Below, one piece after another: positions 31,701 through 59,664 of a stretch of DNA of 64,000 nt (its first letter is position 1; every line of letters begins with the position of its first letter). The translations under genes were made by a program, and so were the position numbers. Source of the stretch: Ascidiella aspersa (taxonomy: Eukaryota); NCBI GenBank assembly GCA_963924565.1, contig OZ004607.1, positions 25,234,001 through 25,298,000 on the forward strand, read 5' to 3'. The notes below the pieces were generated by a model. That model was not told the DNA's origin and ran no database searches. It saw only the letters and a list, made by a program, of their open reading frames with translations.

Positions 31701-34700
31701 GAGGCGTTTCGCATTGGGCACACAACAAATTGCGCGAGCACATTGATTTTATCGAGCTAATTTTGACAAACGTGTTGCGAGGGCATTGACTCCACAGTTG
31801 TAAGAGTTGTATGATGTCGGGCGCAAAAAATGTCAAGCGCAAATATTAAACATTGCGTTATCGTGTTTCAAAAGATGTAACGACACACAATACAACGGCA
31901 ATATTGCAAAAACAATATAGTTTCGCCCAAAAAATGTTCGACTCCCCTGTTGCTATAGCCTGTTATCATATATAAAATATGGATAAAAAATAGTCCGTAA
32001 GGGCGATAGCTTTTATCGTTTATCTACAAGTTAATTTAATAGGGCGGTGATACCGTAAGGGAAGAAAATGTTTGCGGTTTTAATGTTAAATTTGGCAAAA
32101 AACAGAGTTTGTATGTAGGAATTATGCCTAACCCTAACGAAACCATTAAAATCATTGCAAAAAGTTAAAATATTGAAGTCGAGCTCGCGCCCCCCTTAGA
32201 ATTTTCTTTTGCCTTTATACATACGTTGCATTCGGATTTAATTGGATGTTTCTAGCCAAACGTCCCTGCGCGTAACATATGCGAAAATCAACATATACAT
32301 TTTTTGAGATTTGCGCTAGCGCTTTGCCGCCCAACTTTATAACGTCATATCGAAAAGTTTCAAGGCTACCATGTCTAAACCAAAATCCTTGATCCGCCCC
32401 TAATTCTCAAATATGTTTTAAGAACTACAATTGTTCACTTAATTCTCTGCAATATCATTAATCGTGCAATGTGTACATTGTAGCACTACGTCAATTCCAA
32501 ATTGAGCTCATCATAACTTACAGGTGCGATCGCAGTACCAATCGCAGCATACACCTACGTTCATTTTTTCTTTCTCCCTGGGCCCTACAGCAGAGAGACT
32601 TTAATTGAAGGTGGATTGACGTTCATAAAGGTCTACAGACTCTTCACCTTTTTTTTCGTTCTCTCCAACACCTTGAGCCTTCTTAGGTGAGATGAACAAA
32701 TTGTGTTATAAAAAAATCAAGAATTTTCATCACTAACGGAAAGTAATCAAAAAATGTAAAGGTTTTTGAAACAGCATAAGGTATCGACAATAAAGAGGTT
32801 TGAATGCACTGCAATGTAGTTATATTAGAGGAAACTAGTAACCGGGTATTTACACAAAATATTGCCGCAGTTTAATTCTGTAACGTAGAATGATATTTTG
32901 CTTTCCGGTCATACGGATATTAACCGACACCGACATTTTTTGACAAAACAATAACTGATTTACGAGGTTGGGCTGCATATTAAATTAGTTAAAACAGCGA
33001 CTAAGATAAACTAGTTTTACGTTCCGTTGAGACCTGTTTTGATGGAGATGGAGCGACTTGTATAGCCTAAAGCCCTAAACCTACACACTAATACATAGGC
33101 AATCCATGTGTATTGTGTATCAAATTACGTGGCACATAAAGCCAAAGAAAATCATACATTTTGTTTGTTACCATAAAACCCAATGCGATTAGAGTCGGTC
33201 AGTTACTTGATCAACTTCTTACTATTAAGAAGTTAAAACAACCAAAATAGATAAAATTATTTGACATTTGGCGATTTACTCAGCTTGATACTTCTGAGCA
33301 CGGACCGTTTCATGGCTATATGCTATCCACTACGTTATCACGCCGGTGAACTGATGACGCACGGCCGCGCCAAGCTGTGTGTGATACTCACCTGGATGAT
33401 TGCCTTCGGGTTAGCCCTATTCTTCGAAGAAACTCTTGGAAGCGAACTTCAGGGATTGGTAGACAGCAGGTGGAGTAGGCCTATTGAAAAAATAACGTTG
33501 GTTTAATCTTTCGTTTCGTTTTGGACTGAGTATGGATGCAGCAATATTTACTATATATTACATTTAGAAAATTAGGATCACTAAAATAAATATCCGTTGT
33601 TGCCAAGATTGAATAGGGATTAGCACCAGTTTAACGCTATATGTCGTCATAAATTGGTATAATAAAATATTACCTGACTATTGCGTAGTTAATCCTTGCG
33701 GTACATATTGTTGTACTAAGCCGGCGTAAGCTTGCTGAACCCTCGAAATATAAATTAAATATAATAGATTGAAACCACGATGGTATACAAAAAGCAAAGT
33801 AATGTTTCTCATATTCTACATATTACTAGCAAAAAAAAAGGAAAACAATAAACAATTTAGCTCAAAATTAAATTTCAAAACTAAAAACATTATAGAAATA
33901 AAGATAAATTTGGGACAGCGCAATATATTGTTTGCTAATTGACCTTTTAGAGCAATAAAACTTAAATTAGGAAATCATCATCGTCATGATAAACATGGTT
34001 CGGAATAAGACCAAAATAGGACTAACAAATATAGTCGGAATACGGTCGAAATTGGAATAAGACCGAAACCTTTTAAAATATTACCCCGCCAGAATGAGAC
34101 CTTGAATTTAAAACAATATTTAACTAACATCAAAGCCCAAAACTAATTCAGTAATGCAATTAAACTTTGAATGTATTTAAATAGTAAAACTCAGTTGTTG
34201 TTTTTTGTTTTTTTGTTTTTTTTTTGGGGGGGGGATTGATCTGGTTCCCTCGCTTTAGATGTCGTAGTAGATTACCGAACATAACTCTTTAATGCAAGCT
34301 TTCGTATTAGTTTCAACATTCCGAGCTGCCAAAGTTTTGAATAAAACTTTATAATGGGCTTATTTATTCTTAACATAAATGTAATAAGTGATTGCTGAGA
34401 AAAAGATACCCCTCAAAAGCTAAAAAAGCCTTAGCTAGTTTTATTTGACATTATCAAATCAATTTTGAGTTATCGCGAAAAGCGTTACTCGTTGTTTAAA
34501 TTATATTTATTCTTCTGTATAACAACTGCATATCTAAATTTACAATCATTCCTGATATAAACATATAAACGTACAATTTTAGCCTAGCACCGAGACCAAC
34601 TTTTTACATGATCACAAGGCACAAACAATCAAATCCATATTTATGTGGTAGAATACATTGCAATCATAATCTAATCGAAAACCTAATAAGGGTAGTATAA

Positions 34701-37251
34701 TTAATATTTCAATAGTTAAATGAAGTTTTTTCCATCTAATACATTTAAAGTGCCCGGATGGGTAAAAACATTTACAGAAAGTAAAATAAGACAAAACGAA
34801 CAAGCCTAAAAAATACGCACGTTTTTCAAAAAAACAAAACAAATTATCTAAGACACTGTAACCTCCTCCAAAATAAGAACAAATCTTCCAAATTACCGAC
34901 AGAATGTAAACCCTGTCTAAACGTAATTGAGTGCAATTGAAAGTAAAATTTTAAAGGTTTCGTCATTTATAGTAATTTAACCTTTATTGTGCCTAAATGC
35001 AGGTTAGTTTATAACGTGGCAAACTACTTATTAATCTGTTTAAAATAATTCTACTTTCCAGCTATGTCCACAGAGTCGTTAAGGCGATGTCGATAATATT
35101 TGGAGTCTTGTACATGATTACCATATTTCTGCTTGCTGCAACTGTGCGAAACAGGTGAAAGGGATTTGGTTTTGGAATAGATCAGAAAAATTGAGTCGTA
35201 CCATAAAGTCACAACAGCGTAATTTTACTGTATCAACGAGGAAATCCAAATAATATAAAATTTCCCATGCTTCAAAACATGTACATTATTATGAAACCAA
35301 AATAATATAAATACATCCGTTTGGCTTACGGGAAGGGGTAGACAAATGTGTTTATCCTGCTTATATTTCTTTGCATCGATAGGTACATTTGAGTAAAATG
35401 TATTTAAAATTATACGTAATTTACTCCAAAACTGCCATGTATAATAAATGAGATTGTCACCGTATTATCTTCCGTATTTCTTATTTGAAAACGAAAAAGC
35501 GATTTGTTTAATTTCTTTGTATGCCGCAAGCTGAAAAATGTATGAGAGTCAGTCAGGGCTGGATTAACCTTTAAGCAAAACAAGCACTTTGTTAGGGTAC
35601 GAAGGAAAGGGACACATAAATTTTCATATTCCAATTTCCAATGGTGCCTCAGTGTGGAACAATTCGAGTAAATCAGACGACTCAGACTTCAATAGTAGCC
35701 CGGTTGAAATTAATTTTTGCTTATTTATCTTTCCAAAGTGTTACCTTAAACCCCCTCTTCATCTAAAACAAAATTCACGTAAATTACTCATATCTTGACC
35801 CTAGATTATATTTTGAAAGACACATATAAGACACCATTTTAAATTGCTTAGGGCCCCTAAAAGACATTATCCGAGCCTAGAACCACTGATTTCGTTGTAT
35901 CTGTTTCATAGCATGTGTATCGTTTGGTGATTTGTAAATATTTACTTTAAAATACTTTTTCCTAAATACTATTTTGGTGGTTTACAAAACGCTAATTTTT
36001 TTATCAAGCTTCAAGACTATCCGGTCGATGCAAAGACTAAACGCATTAAACACAGTTCGGCCGCGTGAGAGTGTTGCGGAGGCAGGCAAAGTCGTCAACA
36101 TCGAATTGAAATTCGCCAAAACCGTCGGTTTGATGGTTGTTTTCTTCACGATGTCTATCACCCCCTATGTTATATTAAAAATGGTGGGTGCAGTTACTTG
36201 TGAACTTTATGATGTGACACCTTTGTTTAAAATTTTATTAATAAAATGTTTGTTATCTGTTCCACAAAGCAGAGCTGCGAAACTGGGGGAGTGTTAAATC
36301 TATTCCAATTGTGTATCTTTTGACTTTTGATTTGCGAAATGCTGAAACTAATGCCATATAGCAGTGGTCGGCAATCGCCGGTCCGCGAGGAGTTCGTTAC
36401 CGGTCCGCAGCAGGGTTGCCAGATTAAAATTTTGATTTAAAGAAAAAACGTGAAATAAGTCAAAATTAAATCTAGTTTTCTATTCAAAACACATTAACTT
36501 TCGTTTAAAAACATACTCCATGATTGATTAATATAATACACATCTCTACTAGTATTAAGCACTCGTGAGGTTCAAAACAAACCATTGTGCTGTGGACATT
36601 TGTTGTTTTTTTAAGGCCGGTCCGCGGAAAAATTTTAGTTTCAAACCGGTCCGCAGGGCCAAAAACGTTGCCGACCCCTGCCATATAGGATAGCTAATAA
36701 GCAATAATAGTTGCTACAACCAAATGTAATCTATTTTTTCTTTGTATGTATTCAGATCGACTCGGACAATTATTACCTGGAAATGGTGTTCGAATACCTG
36801 ATGTACACCAACAGCTTGTGGAACGTTTTCATCTATAGCCTGAGGTGTCGCGATTTCCAGCTTTCCATGATCCGCTTGCGAGCCACAAGGACAATCATGG
36901 CCTATGTGTGCAAAGCTACACTGGCCGATCTGCAGTACGATGTACCGATGATAAGCAGAACAGCGTCCAACGTCACCCAAACCATACCGGCAAAGGGGTA
37001 AATTATTTGTACCATATAGTGTCAGTCCTACGCATTCTTAGTTTGGTAAATGCAAACATATGAAAAACGTTCGAAACGTGTTCTATTGCTTTTACAGAAC
37101 GCCGCCCGTTAACAACAACGTCAAGAGAGTTCTCTACCAAGCAAACACTAGCTCTCCAAGCACTCATACCCTGGCCTCCATTACGTCAGTGGTAGGGCGA
37201 GAGGCAACCACGCTTTTAAGTAATCAACAAGAAAGAGTGGAGACTTGCTGA
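28765..37251 (+). CDS. Orphan rhodopsin-family (class A) GPCR, about 7 coding exons
   Basis: Approximate exons 28765-28948, 30453-30645, 32524-32687, 33284-33469, 35062-35154, 36009-36183, 36756-36997, 37098-37251. N-glycosylated N-terminus; TM1 GN; TM2 SLALADL; TM3 DRFMAICYPLRY; TM4 W; TM5; TM6 KFAKTVGLMVVFFTMSITPY; TM7 NSLWNVFIYSLR; helix-8 F. Confidence 0.9.
30680..31133. mobile_element. MITE with GGCGGATC termini in a GPCR intron
   Basis: Begins CAGGGCGGATCCAAGG and ends CCTAGATCCGCGCCTG. A similar end (CCTTGATCCGCCCCT) occurs at ~32390. Confidence 0.6.
36362..36680. mobile_element. hAT-type MITE in a GPCR intron
   Basis: TIR CAGTGGTCGGCAA / TTGCCGACCCCTG, subterminal GGTCCGC repeats and perfect 8-bp TSD CCATATAG. 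Confidence 0.88.
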
Positions 37252-38677
37252 AAAACGCCATCAAAAAGCAAGACCCGTCTTCAGTGTGAAAAAGGGGTTT
37301 AAAAGGGATGTTTCCTATTATTTTTAACATCAATATTTTTTAGGCCAATTATTAAAAACGTAGGCTATTTCAACTTGATGGAAACAAAATTTATAATCTG
37401 ACGCGATTTGTAATTAATATTTAATTTTCCAACAGGATGCATAAACCTTATAGGTGTAAGTATTTTTTTATTTGTTTATTAAATTGTAAATCGTTAAAAA
37501 TCCAGCAAGAGCGATATGTTGTTCGTCTTCATTATGCTTTCAAACTGTTTCGAGCCTTGTTTATCAAAACAAAGAAACAATTATAGTGGTCAGGTACTGA
37601 TCGAATTTTACCTTTCGGCTTTTTTCGCACTCCCTTTTTCCGACTACTCGAAAGACAAAAAAGACAAAAGTAGCCATAGTTATTTTCATAAAAGTTTCGC
37701 GATTCCCTAAAACGTTTTGCGAACACGGAGTATTACAACGAATACAGTGTGCATGTATGGAATTTCCAATGCCCAAATATTTTGAAGCGTTTTTGTATGG
37801 AACTTTTGTGTAGAATATTTAACTGCTTCTTTCTTTCATTTGTATTCTAATAACTGTTTCGCCAAGGTATATAATACAAAAAAATTTTTACACGTATTTA
37901 TGACTTAATTATTGCGTATTTGTGACAAGGTATGCATTCCCGATAGAAATTCCTGTTATATGCCAATGAAAAACAAAAAAACGTTAATGGTAAGCCATGC
38001 TTACCACTAATAAATTTTGCTAACAAAAGTTGTTGTAAAATCGTAATGTCCAGTTGCCTTACGCTGGAAAATGTATATGTTCACTTTTTTACAATTTTTT
38101 GGTCTTCGTTTTCCGGCCATTTCCTCTAAATTATCGATTTTTGCAAAGTTATTGACATAAAAAAGGTTAAACTACCCAAATTGGTAAAATTGTCCTATTT
38201 TCTGCTAAAACATGCTTTTATTTTGCTAACACGTGCTTTAATTTATAAGCAATAACTTAACTAGAAAATAACAAAAAAACAGCGTATAACAAGCTTGTTG
38301 TTTTATGTTCAAAAATTTAGACAAATAACTTATTTTTTTAAAAAGGCTAAATGAAAACACTTAATTTCAACTCGACTCATGTGACTCCATGACTCTAGTC
38401 TAAATCAGGTAATTTGTCCAAAAGACTTTAGTCAAGTCAAGCCATTCTACCGAAACGACACAAGTCAAGTAAAATTATTTTAAGACAGAGACTTAAGTTC
38501 ACTTTAGTAAAGTCATTAGCATCATTACACCTCTGGCAAGATTTATCCATTTAACAATGGACGCACATACAAACTTTTTTAATGTAATTAAAGCACTTAC
38601 ATTTAAGCAAATTATTTTGCAGTTAAATTAAGGTCATTTTGCCCGACAGAAAGAAGGAATTGACTTACACCTTAAAC

Positions 38678-38938
38678 CAGTGGTTCTCAACCGAGGTCCC
38701 GCGGCACTATAAGGTGCCATTTTTACCGCTCAACAGAGTCAAGAGATATTTCAAATTATTTAGGAGTACCAAAGATTCAAAAAGTTATTTCAACCTTGTT
38801 GAGCAGTTAATGTGCTGTTGAAATCTCGTTTATTGTAACGTTGCAGTTAACCACTCAGCAAAAATAGGACCAAAGGTGCCGCGAACTATTTGTAATTTCT
38901 GCAGGGTGCCGTAGCTCAAAAAAGGTTGCGAAAGACTG
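38678..38938. mobile_element. hAT-type MITE
   Basis: Ends CAGTGGTTCTCAACC and GGTTGCGAAAGACTG, subterminal GGTGCCG repeats, near-perfect TSD CCTTAAAC/TCTTAAAC. Confidence 0.75.
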
Positions 38939-40309
38939 TCTTAAACCATTAGAACGCTGAATGTCTACCAGGCAGTAGCCTATGTTGTTGTCTGGTGTTT
39001 GACATATAAGATCGCACAAGCAAACTGGAAAACAACAAATTAATATACAAGCGATATATTCTACCAGAAAAACGTTTTGTAGCATGTTCAAACGATTATT
39101 ATGTATTCAGCATATACCAACCGGCTTAAAGTAAGAACTAAATATACAGTGAACCGTCGGACTAAAAGTGTGACACACCTTGTTAGATTTCGGTTACCCA
39201 TCGTTATATCAGTTTAAGTTGACTGCGGCTGCCCACATGCTTAGCCAATACGCATTGTTAACGACGTGCGTGTACGTATGTACGTACGTACGCATTGTGC
39301 AATCGGTGGTGAAACAATGATGTGAATACGAGCTTAAAGCTTTCATGTGATCTAGAAAGACCGCGACAGGAAAGTTAATGCAGCTAAGCAATCGATTTAA
39401 ATCGGTTGAGTGCTACACCGTTAAAACAGGCACACTCAACTCGTAAATAGTTGCGCTGCTCTGCTGTGGTTAATATGTCTGTATAAGAAATGAGCCTATA
39501 GTCCGATGTTTACCTTACCAAATTAAGTTTGTATAAGTTTTTTTTACATTATTGAGTATTGTTTTAGCTACGATATAAAGCTTTCTGTTAAGTTATGTGA
39601 AGGTTGTTTAATATATTACAAAAAAGTCTTCTTTTTTTATGCAGCCTAATTACACTTTCTTTTGTCAGTCGTGTACTATCTTGGACAAATACCGCGAAAG
39701 CACCAAGAGTAAACTTTCGCTTTAGGCAACTTATTATATAAATCACAGGTTAACCAAAGTCTTAATTTGCACTTACAAATCTGTCAACTGATATAATGGT
39801 TGTAACTTTGCTCTATTAGTCGCAAGAATAAGGTCCTAAATTGTAGTGTAGTACAATTATGTTGTACTATAAGTATCTTACGAAGAAATCCCAGAAGAAA
39901 AATGGTGTTTCACGTAATGTAGCGCAAAGAATGACGATAACATAAGATGCGTTATTCAGTCACCCTAGTTTTTTTTTTTTCAGATAGACTGTGTTCGTGG
40001 ATTTTGAAATTCAGTCATGATATTTTTTGTTAAAAACTGATTTTTAGGCCTAAATTGGTCCACTTTTTAGAGGTATATGGCCACCTAATACACATTGGTG
40101 AAACACGCAGTGGCTGAACATGCACGCAGCGTACCCTCCCTCAAAGAAACAGCACAAGACTCCCACGGGACTAATCGATTGAGTTCAAACCGGAAGTGCG
40201 TAGTCTATAGTGCCTTGCTTGCTTTTTTAAAGCTGATTGTGCAAAATGTTATTTCAGCGTTTTATTTTTGCTATCCTAAAAGTATTTTTTTAGGTTCGCC
40301 ATATTTAAT

Positions 40310-41226
40310 TGCAAAAAAGATTGCGCCATAGTTTGGCATACATTTTCCAGGAAGCCAAGCTCGGTGCACGAACAAAGCAACCCTGGTGAAGCATTTTAGG
40401 ATTGAGAAAAAAGCAACAGCCTACTGAATAAAATACCTGACAAAACAAAACCAAACTGATTGGAAAAGCTAAAAAGTAAAGTTGAAATCTCCAAAAGAAA
40501 TATACTTGAATTCAACGTGGTAAATTTACTTCCTTGATTGCGGGTCTTCTATGATATTGTCAACGAAAACTCGGTGGTTTGCCTTCCGATAATTGTGTCA
40601 AACGTGGTCAAAGCTATGTTCGACGAAACCGAATTCGGCAACACCAGCACCACCGCGACCCCCAGCGGTAACAGTATAATAGTAGTCGGGGCGATAAGTG
40701 GCGCTGCTGTGCTGTTGCTAATTCTGGCTTCTGGATTGGCTGTGTATTTCTTTCAAGCAAAACGAACCGAAAGGCGTCTGAGGCAAGCGGGTGTGAGGCG
40801 ATCGAACTATTACCGCAACAACGCCGCAAGCATGCGGGAAATCGCTGAACACAACAGATCACAAACCGTCGACGATGACCCGGCGTCGCCCGAATCTTTG
40901 AATTCATGTGAGTAAGCTTGAATAAATACCAGCAACAGCATGCAAAAATAAAATGATAAAATAAAGTGTGCGAGGCATAAAGAGAAAAGCTGGTAAACGT
41001 TTACGTTTTGAACAGCACAGTATTATCTGTCTTATGATATTTTAAGGCAACCTATCATCATTAAAAGTTTCTTATTCCTATTTTGTTAGAAATTCACAGT
41101 TGCAAATCTTACAGTGTTAAACAAATATTAAGTTTAAACATTTGATATTTATTTTTGACTTCGCAGAACCGCTATTAACATTTTACCAGGAAAAGAAGAA
41201 TGCCGACTGAAAGATCATTTTCGGTG
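40310..41226 (+). pseudogene. Probable decayed paralogue of the CTLD-TM receptor genes (stalk, TM and tail open; lectin domain disrupted)
   Basis: ORF 40538-40915 has a Thr/Ser stalk (GNTSTTATPSG), a TM (IIVVGAISGAAVLLLILASGLAVYFF) and a basic tail like its neighbours. Upstream, TTC CAG GAA GCC AA GCT CGG TGC ACG AAC AAA GCA ACC CTG GTG reads FQEA-(frameshift)-RCTNKATLV, and TAC TGA ATA sits where YWI/YWV is expected. A possible last exon starts at 41167. Confidence 0.55.
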
Positions 41227-44500: not shown

Positions 44501-45161
44501 ACAAAGTATGACTATATAAAAAAGTGTTGTATGCAAACACGTTGTTGGCCCATTGTTTGATTAGCTTGTCTAAAGTGCTTCTGTTAGATACCAATTTATT
44601 ACGTTATTTGTAGACGAATTTCTTAACCTTATTGGTAAAAATGCGATACAAGCATTTGCAAAAATGTTTACCTTTAAAGGAATTATAATTCAGAAAAAAC
44701 TGGTTACACATATAGGGACCAGGAGTTTAAGGGAAATGTCACCGTTTTACTCTTAAGAAAACGTCATGGAATCCTATTAGTCATACCCCGTATTGTAGCA
44801 AGAGTTATTTTTGTGTTTTGCTCGTGCGCTAAATCAACTGCTTAAATCATGTCAACGCGTCAGTGGCAGTCGCTTGGTAATGCTACAGTTTTAAGTGCTT
44901 TTTTTCTTAATTTTTCAAAAGCGTTTAGAGTGATTATTTTTAAATGTCAAATCCATTTTTATTTAACAAAGAAATTCGGCACAGGCTAACCGCGTGTTTC
45001 TGAGCTATGTAAACAAGTATGCCGTCTGTTATGATACTGTAAACGGTACATTTGATGTTCACTAAACGAGTAATTTATCCGTATTGCACAAATACATTAT
45101 AAATATATTTTGTTTTTGAGCTTAAAAGCATAAAACAGAGTGCTAAGGAAAAAGCTAAAGA

Positions 45162-46995
45162 ATGTCTTGCAACGTAGTTTGCCGACTAAACGGATTTGAC
45201 TATCTTTTTAAAGAAGATAATTTTAAACAGTACAGAGATGCCGAAAACGAATGCAAGAAAACTGCTGGAGGGGACATTACCCTTGTTAACAACAAGCAGA
45301 TTGAAGAAAAACTCCAAGAATGTTGCACTTTAAACAGAGATTACTGGGTAAAAACAAGCACAACAACAACAAATAACTGCTACCGCTTGCAAATAACATC
45401 GACGGCTACATCGACATCATTAGATGACTGCAATTTTTCGAGACGATATATATGCCAGGTTCCTTACATTGAAACCACACTCGCTGCTACAACCGGTACA
45501 ACAACCGCACTCTCAACTACAGTACCCGGGACAAATGCAACTGTTGGTATCACAACTTCCGGAACGTCAATCGAGACACTCACTGACGCTACGGCCATGA
45601 ACGCCGGCGCCGTTATGGGGGCGATCTTCGCCGTCCTACTCTTGATTACGCTGGTCTTGGTGATATATCATTATCGCGTCCGTCGACTGACCAGACAGGA
45701 TTTCACAAAATCTGGAATGAAGACATGCGTCGTCGGCTGTTGCCCATCTCGAAAGAAAACCAAACCCGCGGATCTAAATCAGACTACTCCACAAGAAGAC
45801 CATGGATATTACAGGTGCGTGGGTTATGGTAAGGGAAAGACAAAATATAAGAGACTCCAGCAATAAGGTTTAAATATGGTTGAGATCAACGTCAGAATAA
45901 ACACTTTAAAATAAGACTAAACACCTAAGTCAGAGTAAGACCTTCATCGGAATAAGACCTAAACTGCCATAACAAGGCTTCAAACAATAGCACTACTATC
46001 TTTTGAAGCACACAACCCATTGTCCACTCAAACCCTAATCAAGAGAAAATAGTTCAGCGGCGTTGTGTTTAGTCCACCGCAACTAGAAAATAAAGTATAA
46101 ATGTTAGTAGGTTAGAGAAGTGACTCTAAATATATACAAACCCTTGCCAAAATCTCGCTACACCATTAGCAAAATGCTTCAGCTAACATTACGCACACCG
46201 TTCTAGTTCATGTCATTATTATAACAAGTCAATTCCAAGTCAAGTCAAAGACATAAAAACAAAAACGTTAAAATATTAAAATTAAAATTGGTAGGCCTGT
46301 CCGATTGTGATATTCAACTAAACTAAAAAGTAGCAATACTGCAACATGACAAGCAATATTTTTTTTTATTTTGTAAAACATATTTAAATGAAAATACTTA
46401 ATTTCAACCCAAGTAAAGTGATTTTGCCTGAAGACTCTATCAAGTCGTTTGAAAAAAGGACTTAAATGTACTCAAGTCATTACAGCACTGCGGCATTCAT
46501 TAGCCGGATTAGAGTATTAAAACATTGTCCCTGTTTGTTTAGTTAAATCAAAAAACCTTTATATTGTTGTATTGCAGTATTCAACTTCACGAAACCAATC
46601 AGGTGGCCAACTCGGAATACAGTTTCATTACCGACGTTGCAAGTAGGCCCCAATCCTTAAATCAGACACCGGACTTGGCGTCAAGTCGTCGCATTACCTC
46701 GCCTCCTCCACCGCCTCCACCGGCTGGAGCCCTTCTTCAACTAAGCGCCCCCTACGAGAACCTAAATGGCAATGAAGGCCAGCGTACGAGCGTTGACCTT
46801 AACTTCAGCAGTTCTTTCCCTCTGTCAACCGTACAGCAACCAGAAATTGGATCGGGGGTGACATATACGACGTTGCTTGGCGCGGCGGACGACGAAAGCG
46901 CAGAGGGAAGTGGAGTGTCCTATTCAACAATAACCAGGGTTATGAACCAGCCCCCTGCGGACGAGTACGCAACTGTGAATAAAGTAAGACGATGA
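45162..46995 (+). CDS. C-type-lectin-like domain, mucin stalk, single TM, multi-tyrosine (ITIM-bearing) receptor; exons 45162-45814 and 46578-46995
   Basis: CTLD pattern YLF..KQYRDAENEC..GGDITLV..YWV..NC..DDCNFSRRYICQ; Thr-rich stalk; TM AVMGAIFAVLLLITLVLVIYHY. A phase-2 GT-AG intron joins GYYS|IQ. The tail contains SEYSFI, a poly-Pro run, PYENL, VTYTTL, VSYSTI and EYATV. Confidence 0.85.
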
Positions 46996-48165
46996 CGCAC
47001 AAGCCAACAGAGTTTGAAACGTCGCGTAGCTCGTACAAGGAAGTAGGAAACAGCAATCAAGGGATTTCCAACTGCGTGATTGATTTTGTAAATTGTTTGC
47101 TCAGAGTCGGTGGTGCTCTAAAGCAGTGTTTCTTAGACGTTTTTTAGTTATAGTTTCGTTTACCCCGACCAAAATTCTGCATTTCATTCACAACAAATAT
47201 GACTGTAATATCTATATATAACGATGTTTTATAAGAACGCGTACACATGGGAGTACGCAAATAAAATTTCGGTCCACGAGCAGGTTCATTTTACTGGCAC
47301 CTTGATGATTGTCTGTATAACATTGATTTAAACAAATCGTTGCTAACGTTTTTGTAACGGGCGAAAAAAGTTTAAGCTTACTTACTGCAGCGTTTAAACG
47401 ACCTCGCTGCCCATGCCTATGACTTCCAGCTGGACATTAGCATAACTACTGTTATTTATATTAGAATGTTAATATAAATATAAATCTTTTCACCGCCACC
47501 AACGTTTTGTTTTGACAATATTTTCTCTCCCTTGGAAGTCTTTATGGTTTGACAGTAAGAAAAATAACATTGCTTTGCATGATCAAGTCGTTATAAAAGT
47601 AACCTTTAGAAATGTTCAAGTGAAACTGTTCAAATACATATAAGCATTCACGCGAGTCGTGAAAAAATAACAATCGATTGGTTGATTTTAACAACGTTTA
47701 ATTTAGAGGAGACGTGACACCTTAAAGCACACAGTTTATTGAATTTATAAATATGATTTTAGACAAGGGAACTTTAATGTTCTTATTTTGTCCTTCGCGC
47801 CCTCCTTGCTAACCCTTCACAACCCCCCTATACCTCCCCACTCCCCAGGGGTGCGTTTATCCACACAAAATTTGTCAGAGTTTACAAAATATTGCGTTTA
47901 CGTTGTACGCCATTTGGTACCGGGATTACGTGTTTGTCTTAAATGTCACACAAGTCGAACAAATAATGCTCCCAGGCGGGTCATATCCTCAACATACTTT
48001 GATTATGCACCAGGAAACTTACTCGAATATCACACAATAAACCTTCCCAAGAATAATTTGATACCAATTTAGACCAAACCTTTATGGTTTCTTATAATGT
48101 GTTTAACCACGCAAAATTTAGATAGATCTCGCAAAGTTTCGCGTTTATTATGCAGTACTTCAAAC

Positions 48166-48330
48166 AATAGTAAGCAATATAAATCAAAAACAGCTCCTCT
48201 GGTAATTGTAATTGTTAACCAACGTTTCGGCAACCTATACAAGCCGCCTTCGTCAGGGTGAATCGGATTCAGGAGCTGTTTTTGATTTATATTACCATGC
48301 CTGGTAGCAACAGTTTAAATAGTAAGCAAT
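48166..48330 (-). mobile_element. Short truncated Penelope-like retroelement insertion (pLTR remnant)
   Basis: 13-bp direct repeat AATAGTAAGCAAT at 48166-48178 and 48318-48330. Perfect 23-bp inverted repeat at 48176-48198 and 48271-48293 encloses the hammerhead. Confidence 0.72.
48218..48259 (-). ncRNA. Minimal type-I hammerhead ribozyme motif (Penelope-like-element type)
   Basis: Minus strand reads ACC-CUGACGA-A-GGCGGC-UUGUAUAG-GUUGCC-GAAA-C-GUU-GGU. This gives both core boxes (CUGANGA and GAAA), stem II GGCGGC/GUUGCC, a palindromic AACGUU stem III, cleavage triplet GUU and a 3-bp stem I ACC/GGU. Confidence 0.8.
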
Positions 48331-48425
48331 GTTTGTTTTTAAAGGGAATTCTTCGTACGTTTGACGCCGTTTGGTACCGGGATTAAGCATTTGCTTGAAT
48401 GTCACGCTATCGCCCGCAGAAAATT

Positions 48426-49674
48426 AGGGGCGCCTGCAGAAAATTTTCCAGGGGGGAGAAATCAGGGGCGTAACCAGAAAATCAAAAAGGAGGGTCATGA
48501 ATTTTCAACTTAGGGAATTCCCCTATTCTTCGTATAACGTTAATGAATAATGACGTTATAAAACAGTGACAGTATGACGTCATAGAATGGTGATTGCAAG
48601 ACGTCATAAGAAAACTAATCAGAAACAGCCAAATACGATCAGCAAAAGCGACCACGTGCGTCGTTAACAATCCTGTCAGGCGCCAGCTGCGAAACCACAG
48701 TGTGCAATCGTTAACTTCAGGCGAAAAAATAAACCAAGACCGTGAAATATATGTGATTAATTGTGGTAATATCATACATAATTCGACTATCAGCAGCGCA
48801 GTTTTCAAGTTCCATGAACGGAACTAGCGCTAAATTACAAGCACGCCTTTCACCACGTGCAATACTAAACGAAGATCGGTTTTCCCAGGTGTTATCATGT
48901 CACGTTTAGCGCAACAATTGCGCCGAGCTGTGTGCCAAGTCAGCTAAATTACAAGCTGTGGTTGAGGGGAAAAAAGTTGTGTCCATTGCACACTTAGCAC
49001 GTGGTCTCAAAATATGCTTAAAGAGCATAATTTTGCGTTAACCATCATTACATAAAAGTGAATACTTTGGAACGCGCACGACAGTCTCCATTATACCTCC
49101 TTTTAAGAATCTGCTTCAGTTGAACAAATGTCGATGTTACACCAACATCGGATATTAGCGCAGAGACCGAACAGCGAGGAACATCAACATACTGCGCCTA
49201 ATTTGACGTTTTTTAGCAAGAAAAAAGAAAGAAGGTTTGACTTAGCGTTGTCAGTTGTCGAATACACCCTTGCTTATTAGTCAACCTAAACAAATAACGA
49301 AGAGAAAAACTATCCAGGGTTTACGGTCGACCAAACAAAAGACAAAAAACGGCGTTTTGCGCTCGATTTTGGTTTCGCATTAGATTAAGTTGCGTGACCC
49401 ATTTACTTAAAAAGCACGCCGCTTCTAGCAGTTTGTTAAACCATGACAAAAACGAACAAAAAACGATAATATAATTTACAAAAATAGCGGGTAATAACTC
49501 CCGGCCCCCTGAATACGCCACTGGGGCGATGGATAATGGATAATATTTTTAAACTTCATAAGTGATACATATTACACTTAATACTAATAAACAAATAATA
49601 CTAAGAATCGCATTTTGAAATTCCAGGGGGGGGGGGGCAAGTGCCCCCCTTGCCCCTCCGTGCGGGCGCCCATG
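48426..49674. mobile_element. Nested MITEs: outer GGGCGCC(C/T)GCA-ended element interrupted by an inner element at 48463-49523
   Basis: Outer ends GGGGCGCCTGCAGAAAATTTTCCAGGGGGG and CCGTGCGGGCGCCCATG. Inner TIR CAGGGGCGTA / TACGCCACTG. Confidence 0.65.
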
Positions 49675-50452
49675 CCCCTAGGGGTGAATTGATAGCAAGG
49701 GGGTACAAACTAAAAATTATTTATTTATTAACAAATTGTTTGAACGAATATTTATTTTTAACTACATTTTCGTCGTAACTGACACTCATTATTTTATTCC
49801 TACCACTTAAGCTTAATCTTTTCTTCTCAGTGGTATTAATATTATATTGCCGTTTTTTCTATTAAGTTACAGTAACCCGAATGTGGCAGTATACACTGTA
49901 GCTATAGTCTTGTTAAGCAACCAACTTTTACTATATGAAGGTAATTTTTTTCGCGCTGTGCGTGAAAGTTTTTAACGATTTAGGAAGTTTGAAATAAACA
50001 TTTTCAGCTCTTAGGCGCCGTGCACGCTATATAGTATATGTTTTGCTGTGTGAAATAATTTATTCTAGAATGCCAATGAACTATTAAACAATCTGCAACT
50101 CACCTTAACACAGTTCGTAATCGTGACACTGTAAACAACTGTTTGTGTTCAACACGCTAATTTACTTAGAACAATTTAATAAATAGACATATAACATTTG
50201 CGAAAAACTTTTTCAATCATGTAATAAAAACAGACAGCATTATAATTTTGGGCATTGCCTTGTGTTCCATAAAGATCAAGACGGTGGCTTCCTGAAAGCT
50301 GAAAATATACAACATAGGTTGGATAAATAAAAAAATATATTGTGAAACAGTTGAAATATTCACTATGCAGTGTGCACTGGCCTAACCTGTATGCTTTTTG
50401 TCAGTCGTCTACCTCAGCTGTGATCTAGTGTACACTTGGGTAGCCTATACAG

Positions 50453-51673: not shown

Positions 51674-52659
51674 ATGGAAATGGAGTGCAAGGTATCCAAC
51701 ACGACCTATGTTTTCAGAAGTGCTAAAAATTTCTCTGATGCCGTACAAGATTGTCAACGAATCCCAAGCGGAAATATTGCTTTCATGAAATGTAACGACC
51801 CCCGTAAAATAAGGGAAAAATGCATGCCAATCGGACAATTTTGGGTAACTTTTGAAGATGTACCACCGGACAACGAGTTGTGCTACAAGTATGAGCCAAA
51901 ATATCTTACGAAAAGTATAAGCGATTGTGCATACCGAATGGATTACATTTGCCAATACCACACAAATGCATCAACTACAACTAGACCTACAGCCGCACTA
52001 AACAATCAGACAGATAACACAGGCCAAATCGTAGCGGGTCTTGTGGTTACCATGTTGATTGCTCTGATGTTGGCTGTCTCGTGTTACTTTTATCGCAAGA
52101 AACGAGATGGTCAAGAGATTAAATGGCTGCAGAAATTTTGGTTCGGATCAAAAAAGTCTGATCCAACCTTTTCTGTGGAAAATGCTGTTGTTGAAGGGTA
52201 AGTTATCAAAAAGTCACGAACTAATGACAGACAAAAATGACAAAGTCCAAAGAACGCACAAATTAAGATTTATTTAAATATAAAAAAATCGGATTACCTG
52301 TATGGTTAAAATACAATATCATGTCTTCACAGTGTGTACAAGGCGCTTATACTGAATTAATTTTCCACAGGACCGGCCAATCGATTCAAATCGAAATTAT
52401 TGACGAAATGGAGACGCAAAACAGTGCCACTGCTAGTGACACAACACAAGACACAAACGACCAAGAAAAGGGTCATGAGGAAGAAAACCATGATAAATCG
52501 ATTGTAGGCGCAGAGCCAGATTACGTCGACATTAATGAAATTCAACAGGCGGTAGTCAGCAACGACCACGCTGACACGACGATAAAGGCAGAAACTCCGC
52601 GTTACAGCGTGGCCGAGAAAGAGGGTGGCGAAGCCATCTACACAGCAATAAAAAAATAA
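51674..52659 (+). CDS. Second CTLD-stalk-TM receptor paralogue with tyrosine-motif tail; exons 51674-52198 and 52371-52659
   Basis: YVF..KNFSDAVQDC..SGNIAFM..FWV..LC..SDCAYRMDYICQY; stalk; TM IVAGLVVTMLIALMLAVSCYFY then RKKR. Phase-2 intron in the tail, as in the 45162 gene. Tail motifs PDYVDI, PRYSVA and C-terminal AIYTAI. Confidence 0.85.
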
Positions 52660-52738
52660 TTTTAAATATCTGTCGAAGGAAAACTTTACATTGTTGTAAC
52701 CTGTTAAATAAGTGACGACTGGCAAGTGCATAGATAAA

Positions 52739-53147
52739 CAGTGTTGCAATTGCTTAAGTCAATGACTTGAATTGACTTAAGTGCATTTAAGTCGCTGTTT
52801 TTGCTTGACTTGAATCGCTTTGGTAAAATGACTTGACCTAATTCAAGTCTATTGGACAAATGGCTTAACTTGAACTCAAGTTTATGAGTCAAGTTACTTA
52901 TGTTGGAATGAAAATATTTCGTTTAACATTTTATTATAGCTTCTATTTATCTTATTTGCATGTAACACGATTATCGAGTTTGCCAATTTTAGTGGAATAG
53001 TTTTATTTTATACCAGCGATTTGGCTTGGAGATGACTTGCTCTAAAAATCACTTAACTTGGCCAACGGTCGGCAATTGGACTGAGACTTAGCTTGTTTTG
53101 TTTATTTTGAAAAAACTTCATTTTATAATGACTTGTTTACAACACTG
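52739..53147. repeat. GACTTGA/TCAAGTC-repeat dispersed element (related copies at ~38370-38535 and ~46205-46490)
   Basis: Ends CAGTGTTG and CAACACTG, with many internal GACTTGA-like units. The inverse TCAAGTC arrays recur at the other two sites. Confidence 0.6.
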
Positions 53148-55057
53148 AATATATGGGATTTCGTTAGTTTATAATTACACATGTTCTTGTTGTTTTTCTT
53201 TATGTAAATATACCTACTTTGAATTCAAAATTCACGTTATAAATTTGTTTTCGGGTTTCAGATACAAAATACAACTTGAAAAAAAGGCCAAAAGTAGTGA
53301 CACACTTAAAGTTTGTGGTTTTTACAACTGTGTTAGACAATAATGCTTTGTAACGTTGGGAATTGGTCCGTTAACGATGTGCTTAGGGTTTTCAATATAA
53401 TCGTTGGTTTTTCAGTTTGAAAAAAAAACAACTTAAAAACTTCAACGCAAATAAAAATTTTACGCAAATCTTTTAACGCAAGCGCTTGTATCGCTATCGC
53501 CAACCACTGAGTGCTTCGACCTTTAAATCAAACAAATGTTTTGCATTTATTTGATCAGTTTTGTGGGAAGACACTTTGTTTTTTCTTAACCGTTACCGAA
53601 CCTTTTTGTAAAATTTCAAGGAAGAATAAACCCGAAAATTAGGACGTTATACGTGAAACTTAACCGGACCCAAAATTGTTAAAAAGCGGTCTTAGCATGA
53701 CGTCACAACTTACATTTGAAAGTTAGCACTTCTGAACAAGTGCAGCTAACTTTTTTTCCAAGCAAGGTTTGGCGCGGCAAAAATAGTATCCCTGTTGCAA
53801 TCCTATAAATAAAATAGACCGTGTAGAAAAAAAAGTTTTAACTTGCAATCCTGGAAATAAAAAAAATAACGCGAAAATAATAAAAAAATGCATATTTATT
53901 AAGTGAAACTGTACATTTTTGTTGTTCAGAAAGTTGAAAATTAGCTGCATTTTATTGACTCACAGTTCAAGGTTTACCACAAGCTATTTATATTTAACCC
54001 GAATTCGAATTTGGTCACCCCGTTTTAAAGCAACTTTGGTCAATCCGGAACTTAACCAGATTCTGGGTTAATGATCCTGGACAGAAGCCACTTATTTTAA
54101 CACGCTATTGCATAGCCCATATTTGCTTTAAAATTTGTTTTTCTATGAGCGACAACTCAAGCTACTATTCTTAGACGACTGACTCACTCCCAAGCGAATT
54201 AAAACGATTCGTTACTTTAGCAAAGATAAAAATCTAGCTGCACCTTATTTGAAGGTTAAGTTAAATGGCCTGATATAGTTTAAACGAAATTCTGTTGGAA
54301 TTACCACCTATAAACTCAATAATCCCAAAGTGGTTAATAGCTAAGAAACCACCGCAAGTTTTCGCTATGACTTATCTTGCGTGCTTTAAAAGCAACACCA
54401 GCATGAAAACACACAGAAAAATATTTTCGGCATCGTGTTTATTCACCAACGGTAAAAAGCATATGCAATCAAAAAAATCGAAGTTAAACACACCCGCGTC
54501 AAGCTGAAGCAGCCCTGGCGGTATTTCGAGCGAGCAATGAACGCGCGAGCGTCAAAGCACCGACATAAAATCCAAACGAATCTGTTGATAATATTTTTCA
54601 AGCTCGAAGGCAACAAAAATCATTACGCGCAAACAAGCACAATTAAAGCTAAAATCTCTACCGGACCTGGAAGACAAAATTAGAATGATATCAGAGGGTG
54701 GTTGACCTCAAACAAATTAGTCCACGAATAAGCTTTTAATCTTGGGCGCAACTGGCAAAAACTAGCATAAAACAAGCGACAATGTAATTTGTGACTTGGC
54801 ACTATGCGGTGCCTATAAATAATTCGCCTTTAGTCACTTTTGGTTGTAACAAAAACTGCTCACAAACTTTAAAGAAAATTGCAAGTGCAATTCCAGGCGC
54901 CTAATAATGCTACGAATCAGTTAGTCAGTCGCCTTCGATCTCCCGGCCCAAGGTTTGCTCATGGTGAAACCCGCCGCCCGCTTCGTCGCTTCTCTTCGGA
55001 GCGAAAGCGACACCCAGCGGTTACGTGAGTCCTTTTACGCAGCTGCTAGAGGGTGCG

Positions 55058-58000
55058 TCATTCGGCGTAGGTGTGATCGTCGTCGTTCACGCTGAAGTGA
55101 AAACTGCTCCCGGCGTTGACGGAAGAGGAAGCTCCAGCGGCTGCAGAGGAGGACGGGGAGGTGAGGGGATTGCTCCCAGAAGTCGAGGAAGACGGGTTAC
55201 AGGTGTTGTCGACCAGCTTGCGACAAATGGGACAGGTGTTGTGCTGAGAAAAACATATTAAAATTGTTAAAATTAGATAGACCGACATATCGGTTTACCG
55301 CTAATATCGGTCGTGATTTGGCTTCTACTGATATATCGGTATCGGTAAATGTATGCCGATACTTTGGTCGATATTTTAGTAAAATAATATGATATAATTT
55401 TTCTGTAGAACAAAAATTGAACCATTTTTTGATCAGAGAAAATTGGGTTTTAGAATCATGCCAAGTAAATATGCAAAATAATAGTTTAATAAAAATTAAT
55501 AAAGGTATACAATTAAAAGGGTATTTGGATTTTATTTTCAATTAAATCAAGTTTCGAATATTTCCAAGGTATATAAAAACCAATCGGTATCGGTTGACAA
55601 ATATGTGAAAAATCGGTATCGGGCTAAAAAAGTGATGTCAGTCGATATCTAGTTAAAATACTTATAAAAAAGTTTGTAATATTATTGGAGTTATAGGCGT
55701 GATGTGTGACGAATCGTGGAGTCCATTGTCTTACCAGTTTCAGCCAAGGTTCTATGCAGGGAATATGAAAGAAGTGGTTGCAGGGAAGTTTCTTGGCCTT
55801 TTCGCTACATCCAAACGCTTCCATGCAAACTGAACAGTCCTTGCCAGACTCTGCCAAAACAAAAAGAATCAGGGTAAAAAACTAACTCAACAAAATGTTT
55901 GAAAATGTAAATAGATGTAGTTGCTGCAATTTATGTATATTGGCGTGTAATTGTTTTTCGCCCATTGAGATAAAAATATTCCCTGTACTCTGCCTTATGA
56001 AGATAGCTGGGAATGAGCATAAATAAACAATAAAAAAGGATGAGACATCGCTTGGCAAAAAAATGAGACGTTGCTTGGCGGCAAACCCAAAAGTTTTGGG
56101 CACAAACTTTTCGCGTTTATTCGAGTTCACAGCAAGGTCGAGAGGTAAACAACAACACAAGAGATAAACTCGCCGGCGTTCAGCGGGCGCTGGTGATAAA
56201 CAAACGCAGAGACGGGCGAGCGCGAAGTCAGACACTAAAAGCGCAAAGGTCGCTTGCAGAGGCGACCAACCACAAAATGTGTTGGAGGTTGGAACAACAC
56301 CAAATCTATGTTTTTTGTTTTCATGGCTGCATTGGCGACCTCGTACTAAGCATGAATTTTTAAGATCATTTTTTTTAATCGTTTACTATCATGGAAAATG
56401 CATGTGAAAAAAGCAAAAAAAAAAAACGCCATGCGTTAATGTACGTGATCATAAAATTAAACGTATAATTTCTGCGTAGTAAGGGTTTGTGTTTGCAGGA
56501 GATAAAACCATAAAAATACGTTAGAATTTAGTTTAACTCCTAATTTGTTTTATTTTAACAAACGCAGGACCTAGTGTTTAACAAAAAAAGAAAAGCAAGC
56601 CGGGAATTTTTAAAGATTAATACTCCTCTTCTATATTTGTTTACATCATTTCCGCCGAACCCAGTTTAAAGCGTTCTCCCATAAACAATCTCGTCCTGGT
56701 CGGAGAAAAACGTGCAGCGGTCGGGTGTTTTCTCGCCAACAGAAGCACGCCATGGCTGCGACGGACCGGCCAAGGTGAAAAGTTCGAATCCTATGACTTC
56801 TCGGAAACGCCAGAGCCAGGCGAGGTGGTTCCGAAACGCCACAAACGTAAACATTTCTGAGAGCGAGCGATTCTCTCGCCCTCTGGCCGCCATATGTCGA
56901 TCGCGCGCGGGCGAGAGAATAGAAATAGCGCAGCGCGGTTTCAGTTGTAAAGCGCAACTGTAGCGAGAGTGAGCCCTCGTCCGCGCGTCATTGTGGCTTC
57001 ACGATTCCGAATCGGTATGTGGACGCAGCTTGTTGACAAAAGAGAAGACCCCCTCCCGTATTTCAGGAGAATCCCGCGGCGTTGAAAGTACGGTTCAAGA
57101 GTTGGAAGTGCGGTTTTAGGCGATGTTCTACTAGATAACGACTATACGTCCTGAAATTCCTGATGCAAGTCTCTTGTTCCCCATTATTTAGTAATCGTGC
57201 CCTTTGCACACCCTGTTAAGTTTTCTGAAATTGCGTCGACGACGCTTAGCATAGAATTTTGTGTCGCAAAAAGCTGAACTTTTCAGGTCATTGTTTGACA
57301 CGTAATAAACAACGAAGAGCGATCGGCGGTTTTCGAGATGGCGGTTGGTGATAAGCTGAAAAGCCGCGTCTCGGGTCATAAGTTACGCAAGGCGGCGACT
57401 GTCGTCGTGATATTCACACAGAACCAGCCACGAGATCGGAAATAACGATAATAATCTTGACATTTCGGTCAAAGATGCGCAACTTGTGGAGCCATAATTG
57501 CTTAATGGGTAAACTAAACAGCGAACACACAAAGTCAGTCAACACAGCTATGAAAAGGCTACTACTTTCCATTAAATTTTAAACGCAGACAATTATTAGG
57601 GCGAACAGTTTAATTTGTTCGCATCACATATATTAACACCTAGTTAAAAATTCGATTTAGACTGCAGAGCACCGAGGAGTGGTGATGCGGCTTCTGCGAA
57701 CGGCCAGGAGAACTTATCCACTTAAGCCGTGACCGTAATTGGCGTGGTGAGACGTCTTGAAATAACCCAGGTTTCATTAGAAAAAAATAAATCCGATTTA
57801 GACCACATAGAGACATGCCTGAGCCTGGATTGGCCACAATGAAGACGTTGGTCGCCCAATCACGTCAATATGTAAAAATATAATAGGCGCATTTAACGGT
57901 GAGCGTATTAATTTGCGAAATATATATATATCGTTATTTTTTTTTTTACATATATTTACTCTACAACTTCCACCAGTAGAAATTAACGACCTGTCTTTCT

Positions 58001-59664
58001 GTTTACATGTAATTCTCGTCTTAACAAATATATACTTTTTCTTGCCAGTGCGAATATGTTCTAACCCTCCTCTTGGTGCCTGGACCCGCGGCGATTTTAA
58101 ACCGCCGACAAACATATGGCGATTTGTGACGCGAAAAAGCACAAGCTGTTCACCTTTGAGCGAACTTTAGTTGATATGCGATACCGGTAACGGCTCTATA
58201 GATCGGCAGTTTAGGACATTTGTTTGTGTCGCTATGTCAACACAATCTACAAAAATGGTGTGGGGCGGGGGATTGGCGTCCAGCGTGCTCATACGCAAAC
58301 TTTCGAAATGACTTTCCTATACAATTTCCTACATTATCAAAACATCCCCTAAACGCCCGAAGCGATTGTTTACAGTCTAAAAAAACACGACACGTCTTGA
58401 AAAAACGTAAACGAATTGCGCGCAAAACGCCGGCAAGCTTAGAAGAAAGTAGGAAACCGAGAAAGCAATAAGCAAAATAAAAGCTGGCGCTTGACCCTTG
58501 TGCAACCCGCTTGGTGAACTCTGGCCGACCCCGAGAGCGCGTCTAGCAGGGTTCACGCGGCGGTCGCGCGCAACGAAACACCCGAGAAAGGCGAACGCAC
58601 CTTCTCGGCGTGCCTTTTCGGGTGAGGTGACGTATAGGCGAGAGCGCAAGAGGCGTTGTAGAGATGGCGGCGCGAAGAAGCGATCATCCGTAAACAGGCT
58701 GGCGGATTTGCGAGCGACCCGCGAGTGAACCGGCACCTTGCTGGGGTCGCGCAGAGTTCAGGGCGCGCGAGTCAATTCGCTCCAAGCGGGGAAAAGCGAT
58801 CTTCTGTTGGCAAGGGGCTCTGACGACGGGACCGGAGACTGGCGTTTTGTGGGCTCGCTTGCGCGTAACACGAACTCCGCTCTCACAACGAAAATTAACT
58901 GATGTTCGATTAGGTTTCTAAACGGTACCCGAAATATAAGATTGCAGACCTCGTTATACAAGATTTATTCGAAATAATAGACTGTTCACGCAACATAAAC
59001 TGGACAATTGAACTGCACATTTATTTCCAACATGACAAATTTTCAAACGAATCGATTTTGGCCTGAATTGTATTTTTGGCGCGTTGATTTAAGTTGCACA
59101 GTACAGTGAACACTCATTGTGGTTTGCCAACTAAATCCGTCTATTGACATTTAACTTTACTACGATCGGATCGGAGCATACACAAAATACTACGCGCCGT
59201 TCAACGTAAATTTCTTGTTTGTCAATTTAAAGTTAAACTTTAACGAATGTCTCAAAGCGGTCGTTGTTTAACAACTATATCCAGCTTGCACATTTATGGA
59301 ATACTTTGCAGGCAATGCAGTTTTATAAACACGAAAAAAACTTTACAAGGTATGTTATACACCAGTTGATAATTAAAATGACGGTTGATTAGCATACAAC
59401 CCACGTCGTGGTAAAAAGTGCTCACTATATTGCACAGAACGTATGAAAATAAAAAAACATATTTCACTGTACTTTTACTTATGGAAAACTGTACTTATAG
59501 AAAATTCTACTTTTACTGTACAGAAAATTCTAGCGTGTTTGTTGTCGTAATATAAAAAAGCAGGACTTACCAACGTGTGTTTGGTCGATCTCGATGGTCG
59601 GGAGGTCTTTGATGGCGCGGTCACTGGCCGGTGGCGGACCTGCACTCTCCAGTTGACCCAATAA
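55058..59664 (-). CDS. RNF115: RNF115/RNF126-like RING-H2 E3 ubiquitin ligase, last three coding exons (59664-59571, 55850-55735, 55243-55058); 5' exons not identified in this window
   Basis: Spliced product [72 protein letters not shown] followed by a Ser-rich tail. The LLGQLE.GPPPA motif before a C3H2C3 RING is characteristic of RNF115/RNF126. The two vertebrate paralogues cannot be told apart here. Confidence 0.88.
55276..55625. repeat. ATCGGTATCGG-repeat MITE-like element in the last intron of the RNF115-like gene
   Basis: Clusters of (AT)ATCGGT and CCGATA units at both ends of an AT-rich core. Confidence 0.55.

Follow-up and report, generated by a model that had tools for sequence, protein, structure and literature searches.

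A predicted single-pass receptor of the ascidian Ascidiella aspersa with a loop-less lectin-like domain and two conserved ITIMs, probably inhibitory

The window, i.e. the whole stretch of DNA analysed here, covers 64,000 nucleotides of the genome of the ascidian Ascidiella aspersa (contig OZ004607.1, positions 25,234,001 to 25,298,000) and carries a two-exon gene, gene A, together with a tandem paralogue, gene B, that lies 4.7 kb further downstream (Table 1). With the GT at 45815 as donor and the AG before 46578 as acceptor (14 of the 20 upstream bases are pyrimidines), gene A has a predicted product of 356 aa, the longest obtained when 18 AG sites from 46400 to 46700 were compared, and this product ends in a tail of 186 aa in which six of eight tyrosines stand in a YxxI/L/V context. 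The joining of 45814 to 46578 had already been proposed in a preliminary description made from the letters of this DNA, and it is supported at the sequence level by relatives, since the same intron position and phase 2 are found in L017, a metagenome contig carrying a distant relative, and in both paralogues on C3 (L008 and L009); gene B has an intron of the same phase. When the genome (308.6 Mb, 75 contigs) was searched, exon 2 gave a single strong match. In line with its ascidian origin, this genome holds one exon that scores above the cut-off for glycoside hydrolase family 6, known among animals as a tunicate trait; none of 14 control genomes gave such an exon. In an RNA run of which about 6% of the raw reads were read, the mean depth was 0.45 over 44942-45475 and 0 over both 45476-46009 and 46544-47077, the latter including the exon 2 region, and the 15 joints listed from it (there were 274 others) included none at 45814/46578. 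One contig of run X2 differed from the window in 17 letters across 46496-47930.

Table 1. Position of gene A, its predicted parts and motifs, and gene B in the window (a slash marks the exon junction)
Feature	Position	Strand	Remarks
Gene A exon 1	45162..45814	+	235-aa open frame; ATG at 45162; encodes lectin-like domain, stalk, membrane helix and first part of tail
C-type lectin-like domain, about residues 1-101	45162..45464	+	predicted from AlphaFold and VIA-align; 8 Cys; long loop missing
Ser/Thr-rich stalk	45465..45608	+	from sequence; low pLDDT across residues 110-143; N-glycosylation sequon at residue 125
Membrane helix, about residues 150-168, then basic cluster	45609..45695	+	predicted; hydropathy 3.07; flank charge -2 / +4
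Junction motif EDHGYYS/I	45795-45814 + 46578-46581	+	completed by splicing; ENHGYYS/I in L017; P0001 and P0002 have EDHGYY in the corresponding position
Gene A intron	45815..46577	+	GT-AG, phase 2, 763 bases
Gene A exon 2	46578..46995	+	150-aa open frame; remaining cytoplasmic tail and stop codon
SEYSFI	46612..46629	+	ITIM/ITSM-consensus match; no counterpart in L017
Heptaproline PPPPPPP	46702..46722	+	no counterpart in L017
PYENL (YxN)	46750..46764	+	chance level; no counterpart in L017
ITIM 1, GSGVTYTTL	46849..46875	+	conserved island; 7/9 residues identical in L017
ITIM 2, GSGVSYSTI	46906..46932	+	conserved island; old repeat of ITIM 1
Terminal PADEYATV	46954..46977	+	PADxYA retained in L017
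Gene B, tandem paralogue	51680..52659 (exons 51680-52197, 52371-52659)	+	matches exon 1 of gene A with E 1.3e-4

Several other features were noticed in the window. Just 5' of the receptor cluster, a Pfam 7tm_1 match marks a multi-exon rhodopsin-family GPCR (30416-37000, +), and the stretches 2382-3818, 8062-15555 and 55061-59757 hold exons with ZP-N and sugar-transporter matches that are weak and below the cut-off and, on the minus strand, a RING finger that exceeds it. Genes A and B are separated by a very high-copy repeat (48146-49747) with a contig depth of about 100,000-340,000 as compared to 50-130 for unique DNA, and smaller repeats lie at 38000-39067, 46010-46543 and 52418-53485. Upstream of gene A, a short frame (40616-40915, +) begins with a Met and some 20 residues that include an N-glycosylation sequon; a hydrophobic helix follows, then a cluster of basic residues and a tail in which SNYYRNN provides a YxN. 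This frame has neither a lectin domain nor a signal peptide and resembles a small membrane adaptor. Homologues of the adaptor LAT are reported to be missing from ascidians in the excerpts available of PMC12582321.

The outer domain of gene A is predicted to adopt a C-type lectin-like fold, on which a profile search, Foldseek and VIA-align agree. The AlphaFold model has a pLDDT of 84-97 across residues 1-100, and its domain aligns with mannose receptor CRD-4 at Z 14.1 (rmsd 2.2, 96 aligned). Foldseek returned 142 matches at E<=0.001, and all 38 of those listed are C-type lectin-like; a profile of the receptor family, whose domains share the invariant residues C31, W62, C73, C90 and C98, led in the PDB to mannose-receptor and NK-lectin domains. 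Taken alone, gene A scores 15.5 bits against Pfam Lectin_C, below the cut-off of 22.6. Measured between the conserved Trp and the last Cys, the span amounts to 37 aa in gene A, 35-41 aa in five of the 12 family sequences (gene A included) and 69-75 aa in the other seven. Since the family thus contains both looped and loop-less members, the long loop was likely lost independently of the known compact CTLDs, which in the excerpts of the review PMC9630629 are the Link and bacterial domains only. Link modules (CD44/LYVE-1) and bacterial CTLDs lack the long loop as gene A does, and LYVE-1 is among the Atlas feature matches for the family protein P0003 (score 0.81), yet no Link module is found among the 50 VIA-align rows listed for gene A. 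None of the Ca/sugar-site motifs EPN, QPD and WND is present in gene A, which as such does not qualify as a Ca-dependent sugar-binding lectin.

Judged from the flank charges, the protein would be oriented N-out and C-in, and in all 12 family sequences the membrane flank is more positive on the C-side. No signal peptide was found in gene A, where the N-terminal hydropathy peak reaches 0.01 compared to the much higher value of the membrane helix. With a single helix, a positive C-side and no signal peptide, the predicted protein has the features of a type III (reverse signal-anchor) protein, and it likely inserts via its one membrane helix. What is unusual about gene A is, besides the loop-less domain, that no signal peptide precedes a disulfide-rich outer part of 150 residues, and the question arises whether it could be an ordinary type I protein with a signal peptide encoded in an upstream exon. 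The 5' end of gene A is predicted from genomic DNA, the database relatives begin at a start codon by construction, and in the C3 genes an AG precedes the ATG by three bases and the frame is open upstream. However, in-frame stops lie one codon (gene A; a TAA at 45156-45158, shortly 5' of the ATG) and three codons (L017) ahead of the ATG, the sole AG between the gene A stop and the ATG has only 5 pyrimidines among its 20 upstream bases, and the T-rich AG at 45119-45120 precedes the stop. Moreover, a Met stands 1-3 residues ahead of the first Cys, itself at residue 2-4, in 12 of 12 family sequences (with P0018 trimmed to an internal Met), so that we regard a type I origin as rather improbable.

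Gene A apparently belongs to an undescribed family of lectin-like receptors, all members of which have the same order of parts. The tail of gene B holds three tyrosines (PDYVDI, PRYSVA and AIYTAI) and neither HGYY nor a strict ITIM or YxN. The two near-identical paralogues on C3 have tails unrelated to that of gene A, each with the ITIM matches SQYASV and VTYAEL, a YxxI across the same junction and no YxN. They lie in a stretch of about 19 kb that was recently duplicated in tandem (C3:23785000-23812000, L008-L011) and in which each receptor copy adjoins a fucosyltransferase exon (Pfam PF00852) and a proline-rich exon. Weak genome matches on C4, C6, C7, C8 and C9 (E 0.03-0.8) were left out of the paralogue count. 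In other assemblies, the family comprises seven of the nine matches of an exhaustive protein search, the omitted ones being P0005 (a flatworm protein of 1,926 aa with multiple CTLDs) and P0006 (a stalk/helix match only), and two further proteins; P0020, one of five matches of a further search, was omitted as it has two ordinary CTLDs. P0010, P0011 and P0013 are cluster mates of P0003 and P0007 and were represented by them. A word-based protein search with exon 1 gave no match, which is a weak negative. The exon-1 frames of P0001 and P0002 end in EDHGYYR and that of P0003 in ENHGYYR, as expected if the frame read on into the same intron, for which P0003 alone provides the DNA basis. The members of the pairs P0004/P0008, P0007/P0018 and P0013/P0019, all of which retain the long loop, share the size of their longest contig, suggesting tandem clusters in another assembly. 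In the family tree, none of the nine inner branches is starred. No description of the family was found in a search of full-text literature, which mostly did not extend to subscription papers; a survey of ITIM/ITAM proteins of Ciona by Azumi in 2003 reportedly exists and may list relatives.

Scored as (S/I/V/L)xYxx(I/V/L), the ITIM consensus is matched three times in the tail of gene A, as the preliminary description had counted, and this exceeds expectation: at least three ITIMs in exon 2 arose in 21 of 20,000 composition shuffles (mean 0.27), and at least six YxxI/L/V in the whole tail in 5 of 20,000. In genomic DNA, at least three matches occur in 17 of 2,058 windows of 138 codons, a set that includes the one of gene A. 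Two further claims held as well, namely that all the listed tyrosine motifs and the heptaproline share one tail, since they lie in one frame, and that GYYSI is formed across the splice, where the predicted joint in phase 2 yields HGYYS/I in gene A and also in L017. The same description took ITIM 1 and ITIM 2 for an internal duplication with tyrosines about 20 aa apart, a spacing compatible with tandem-SH2 binding. The repeat is indeed present, with units alike at 6 of 9 residues and 16 of 27 bases and tyrosines 19 residues apart; the spacing, however, is not fixed, being 13 residues in L017, and is thus weak evidence for tandem-SH2 binding within one molecule. Published examples that we consulted have a wider spacing, with 31 residues in GAB1 (PMC12132298, excerpts). 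A degenerate DNA pattern for GSGVxYST matched the genome once, at ITIM 2. A Pfam LacI match on the tail (E 0.0016, below the cut-off) was dismissed as chance. The preliminary description did not mention that the junction motif sits in a conserved acidic context, that the lectin domain is loop-less or that a signal peptide is missing.

The conservation of the tail was assessed in one relative, P0003, which sits on the two metagenome contigs L016 and L017. In exon 1, L017 and gene A are 29% identical and share the GT at which the exon ends; the tail exon of L017 follows 4.1 kb further downstream, behind a pyrimidine-rich AG. Exon 1 of L017 finds gene A with E 1.6e-12, and its tail has gene A as sole match (E 0.002), the two being reciprocal best matches. 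Compared with the gene A tail, the L017 tail exon scored best among 426 open frames of that contig (98, with 37 for the next and a maximum of 61 in 2,000 shuffles), and the local alignment covers the last 45 residues alone, i.e. the stretch from ITIM 1 over ITIM 2 to PADxYA. Four islands are common to both tails, namely HGYYS/I (five of six residues identical), the two ITIMs of the form GSGVxY[T/S]T[L/I/V] and the terminal PADxYA. In the ITIM 1 block, six of the seven identical residues are encoded by a different synonymous codon, and from ITIM 2 to the end 14 of 28 residues are identical, seven of them with synonymous changes, so that the identity is held at the protein level, which supports an inhibitory core. 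The terminal tyrosine of L017 is followed by Ala at +3 and is therefore not a YxxI/L/V motif there. The internal ITIM repeat is present in both species (in L017, the units are alike at 6 of 9 residues and 17 of 27 bases), and the duplication thus likely predates their split. Taken alone, the ITIM counts are borderline in the L017 tail (6% of shuffles) and in the C3 tails (4%). Among the 426 frames of L017, the two exons of the gene were the only ones to match the window or its flanks, and a neighbouring gene common to both loci was thus not found; with this and a family tree in which no inner branch is starred, the orthology of gene A and L017 rests on their reciprocal best match. A word-based search with the tail alignment found no longer proteins bearing this tail, again a weak negative. 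As to conservation in orthologues, which the preliminary description had named as a check on its motifs and whose lack it had said would speak against them, two of the three ITIM-consensus matches, ITIM 1 and ITIM 2, stand, and SEYSFI, YxN and the heptaproline fall for want of a counterpart in L017.

Possible signalling partners are encoded in the same genome. On C4, tandem SH2 exons are followed by phosphatase exons, and one of the SH2 exons matches PTPN11 best. Two intronless frames of 606 and 608 aa combine tandem SH2 with a tyrosine kinase (C1:3416104-3417921, L035; C1:31715617-31717440, L036); the one that was compared matches SYK/ZAP-70, and the two are possibly retro-copies. Tyrosine-phosphatase exons gave 159 genome matches, most of those listed being on C6 and C8, where they form large tandem arrays (about 28-32.6 Mb and about 8.2-8.5 Mb, respectively). 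Homologues of SHP-1, SHIP, SYK and Src are expressed in Botryllus (PMC12582321, excerpts), and ITIM-bearing C-type lectin receptors assemble with SHP-1/2, although the motif alone does not predict inhibitory output (PMC9630629, excerpts).

From our point of view, gene A is best explained as a predicted single-pass ascidian receptor with a loop-less lectin-like domain that is inserted via its helix and is probably inhibitory via the two conserved ITIMs; its expression, topology, phosphorylation, partners and inhibitory output are what we infer. Since two inhibitory-type tyrosine motifs are retained in a distant relative, gene A likely works as an immune brake. As the long loop with the canonical site is missing, the outer domain would need neither calcium nor sugar and would bind a ligand that is a protein or lies on a cell surface. 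Upon clustering of the receptor, a Src-family kinase would phosphorylate the C-terminal tyrosines, and the two ITIMs, probably assisted by the tyrosine of the terminal PADxYA, would recruit and open the tandem-SH2 phosphatase of the SHP2 type encoded in this genome, which would damp nearby kinase signalling. The membrane-proximal, splice-completed EDHGYYS/I may represent a second conserved docking or priming site. The YxN, the proline run and SEYSFI are likely lineage-specific, to judge from the comparison of the two tails, and would lie outside the conserved mechanism.

It is, however, also conceivable that the tail serves an activating or dual function, with the junction motif as hemITAM or a wide-spaced C-terminal ITAM recruiting a SYK-type kinase and the ITIMs acting as built-in limiter. 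The two SYK-type tandem-SH2 kinases encoded in the genome make an activating use of the tail possible, EDHGYY is present in three and ENHGYY in one of the 12 family sequences with a similar acidic Y/F-Y end in four more, and ITIM 2 and the last tyrosine lie 15 residues apart in gene A as in L017. An ITAM consists of two YxxL/I motifs with a spacing of 6-8 residues, whereas the spacers between the YxxI/L/V motifs in the C-terminal part of gene A measure 15 and 11 residues and that between the ITIMs of L017 measures 9. The Gly preceding the tyrosine matters in motifs of the Dectin-1 type (PMC9630629, excerpts), and FcoR3/4 of Botryllus combine an ITIM with the hemITAM-like ADDVYAIL (PMC12582321, excerpts). 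Phosphorylation of a hemITAM, however, requires acids at -2, -3 and -4 (PMC3576117, excerpts), of which the junction motif has two in gene A (E-D-H-G-Y) and one in L017 (E-N-H-G-Y), with Ile at +3. As the junction motif falls short of the three acids and the best-conserved pair of motifs conforms to the ITIM consensus, we keep an activating role as a rival reading and hold it to be unlikely.

Still less probable is that the tyrosines remain unphosphorylated and work in trafficking, as clathrin-adaptor sorting signals of an endocytic or adhesion molecule with a lectin-like domain. YxxI/L/V is the AP-2 signal and GYxxI a lysosomal signal, so that six tail tyrosines and GYYSI, respectively, would fit, and the nearest fold and feature matches listed include domains of the endocytic mannose receptor. 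The conservation nevertheless takes in the Val at -2 and the preceding GSG, for which the ITIM consensus accounts and which sorting would not need, and the C3 paralogues, different as their tails are, again end in VxYxxL. Of the scaffold that the preliminary description had envisaged, in which one tail unites the inhibitory ITIMs with adaptor functions for Grb2 (YxN) and SH3/WW/EVH1 domains (polyproline), the inhibitory core stands with the conservation of ITIM 1 and ITIM 2. The adaptor motifs are present in gene A, and lineage-specific motifs can be functional; at least one YxN in exon 2, however, arises in 29% of 20,000 shuffles and is hence at chance level, the YxN and the proline run are missing from L017, and the tails of gene B and the C3 paralogues hold no YxN, so that the conserved YxN of a Grb2-recruiting adaptor tail is not found here. 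We thus consider such a scaffold to be most improbable of all.

An inhibitory receptor of this kind would share its logic with several known systems, and its signalling is not of a new kind. The vertebrate ITIM and hemITAM lectin-like receptors (DCIR, MICL/CLEC12A, CD72 and KLRG1; CLEC-2 and Dectin-1) likewise have one CTLD, one helix and tyrosine motifs in the tail, and the domains of CD72, CLEC12A and LLT1 are among the top fold matches listed for gene A (Z 12-13, identity 10-21%). Group V receptors are, like gene A, without a Ca/sugar site, but the cytoplasmic tail of the vertebrate receptors is short and N-terminal (PMC9630629, excerpts), whereas gene A would carry a long C-terminal multi-motif tail and a domain without the long loop. 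The type II order of groups II and V and of the NK complex is not that of gene A, whose CTLD precedes the helix, with the basic cluster and the tail behind it; owing to this reversed order of parts, gene A is no member of the vertebrate ITIM lectin receptors, although it would probably work in the same way. Similarly, layilin and the type I receptors of group VIII have a lectin domain, a stalk, a helix and a C-terminal tail, and layilin is the third Atlas feature match for P0003 (score 0.87), which we take as a lead. Layilin, however, has a signal peptide and the full long loop and binds talin, and gene A lacks a hydrophobic N-terminal segment and has the in-frame stop ahead of its ATG. Among ascidian proteins, BsCD94-1 and CiCD94-1 are membrane proteins with a CTLD, in CiCD94-1 without carbohydrate binding, but they are type II proteins (PMC5465252, excerpts), the reverse of an N-terminal CTLD with a C-terminal signalling tail. 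The FcoR proteins of Botryllus are single-pass and have long tails in which ITIMs occur alongside hemITAM-like and core tyrosine motifs, and their C-terminal ADDVYAIL and [A/D]VYxxV resemble, by motif description, PADEYATV of gene A and PADVYAVA (PMC12582321, excerpts). They differ in having a signal sequence, three Ig domains plus sushi and 520-610 aa (PMC12065747 and PMC12582321, excerpts); the Ig-sushi-Ig-Ig ectodomain is not found in gene A, which has one CTLD and a stalk.

ITIM-bearing proteins as such are known in ascidians (PMC5465252 and PMC12065747, excerpts). FcoR is the sole ascidian ITIM family that we found described in detail, and it is of the Ig type, with gene A as a lectin-type counterpart. 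One could speculate that gene A stands for an undescribed family of ascidian immune receptors that reached the logic of the NK lectin receptors independently, with a reverse topology that dispenses with a signal peptide, a loop loss of its own, one tail that unites an activating motif assembled by splicing with a brake of tandem ITIMs, and tandem paralogues with different tails as paired receptors; in this full form, the idea is tentative and rather doubtful. Gene A sits in the likely sister group of the vertebrates, its motifs pass a conservation test, and genes similar to SHP2 and SYK are present in the same genome. As such, it makes testable whether receptors that use a lectin domain to work as a brake are older than, or arose in parallel to, the vertebrate NK complex.
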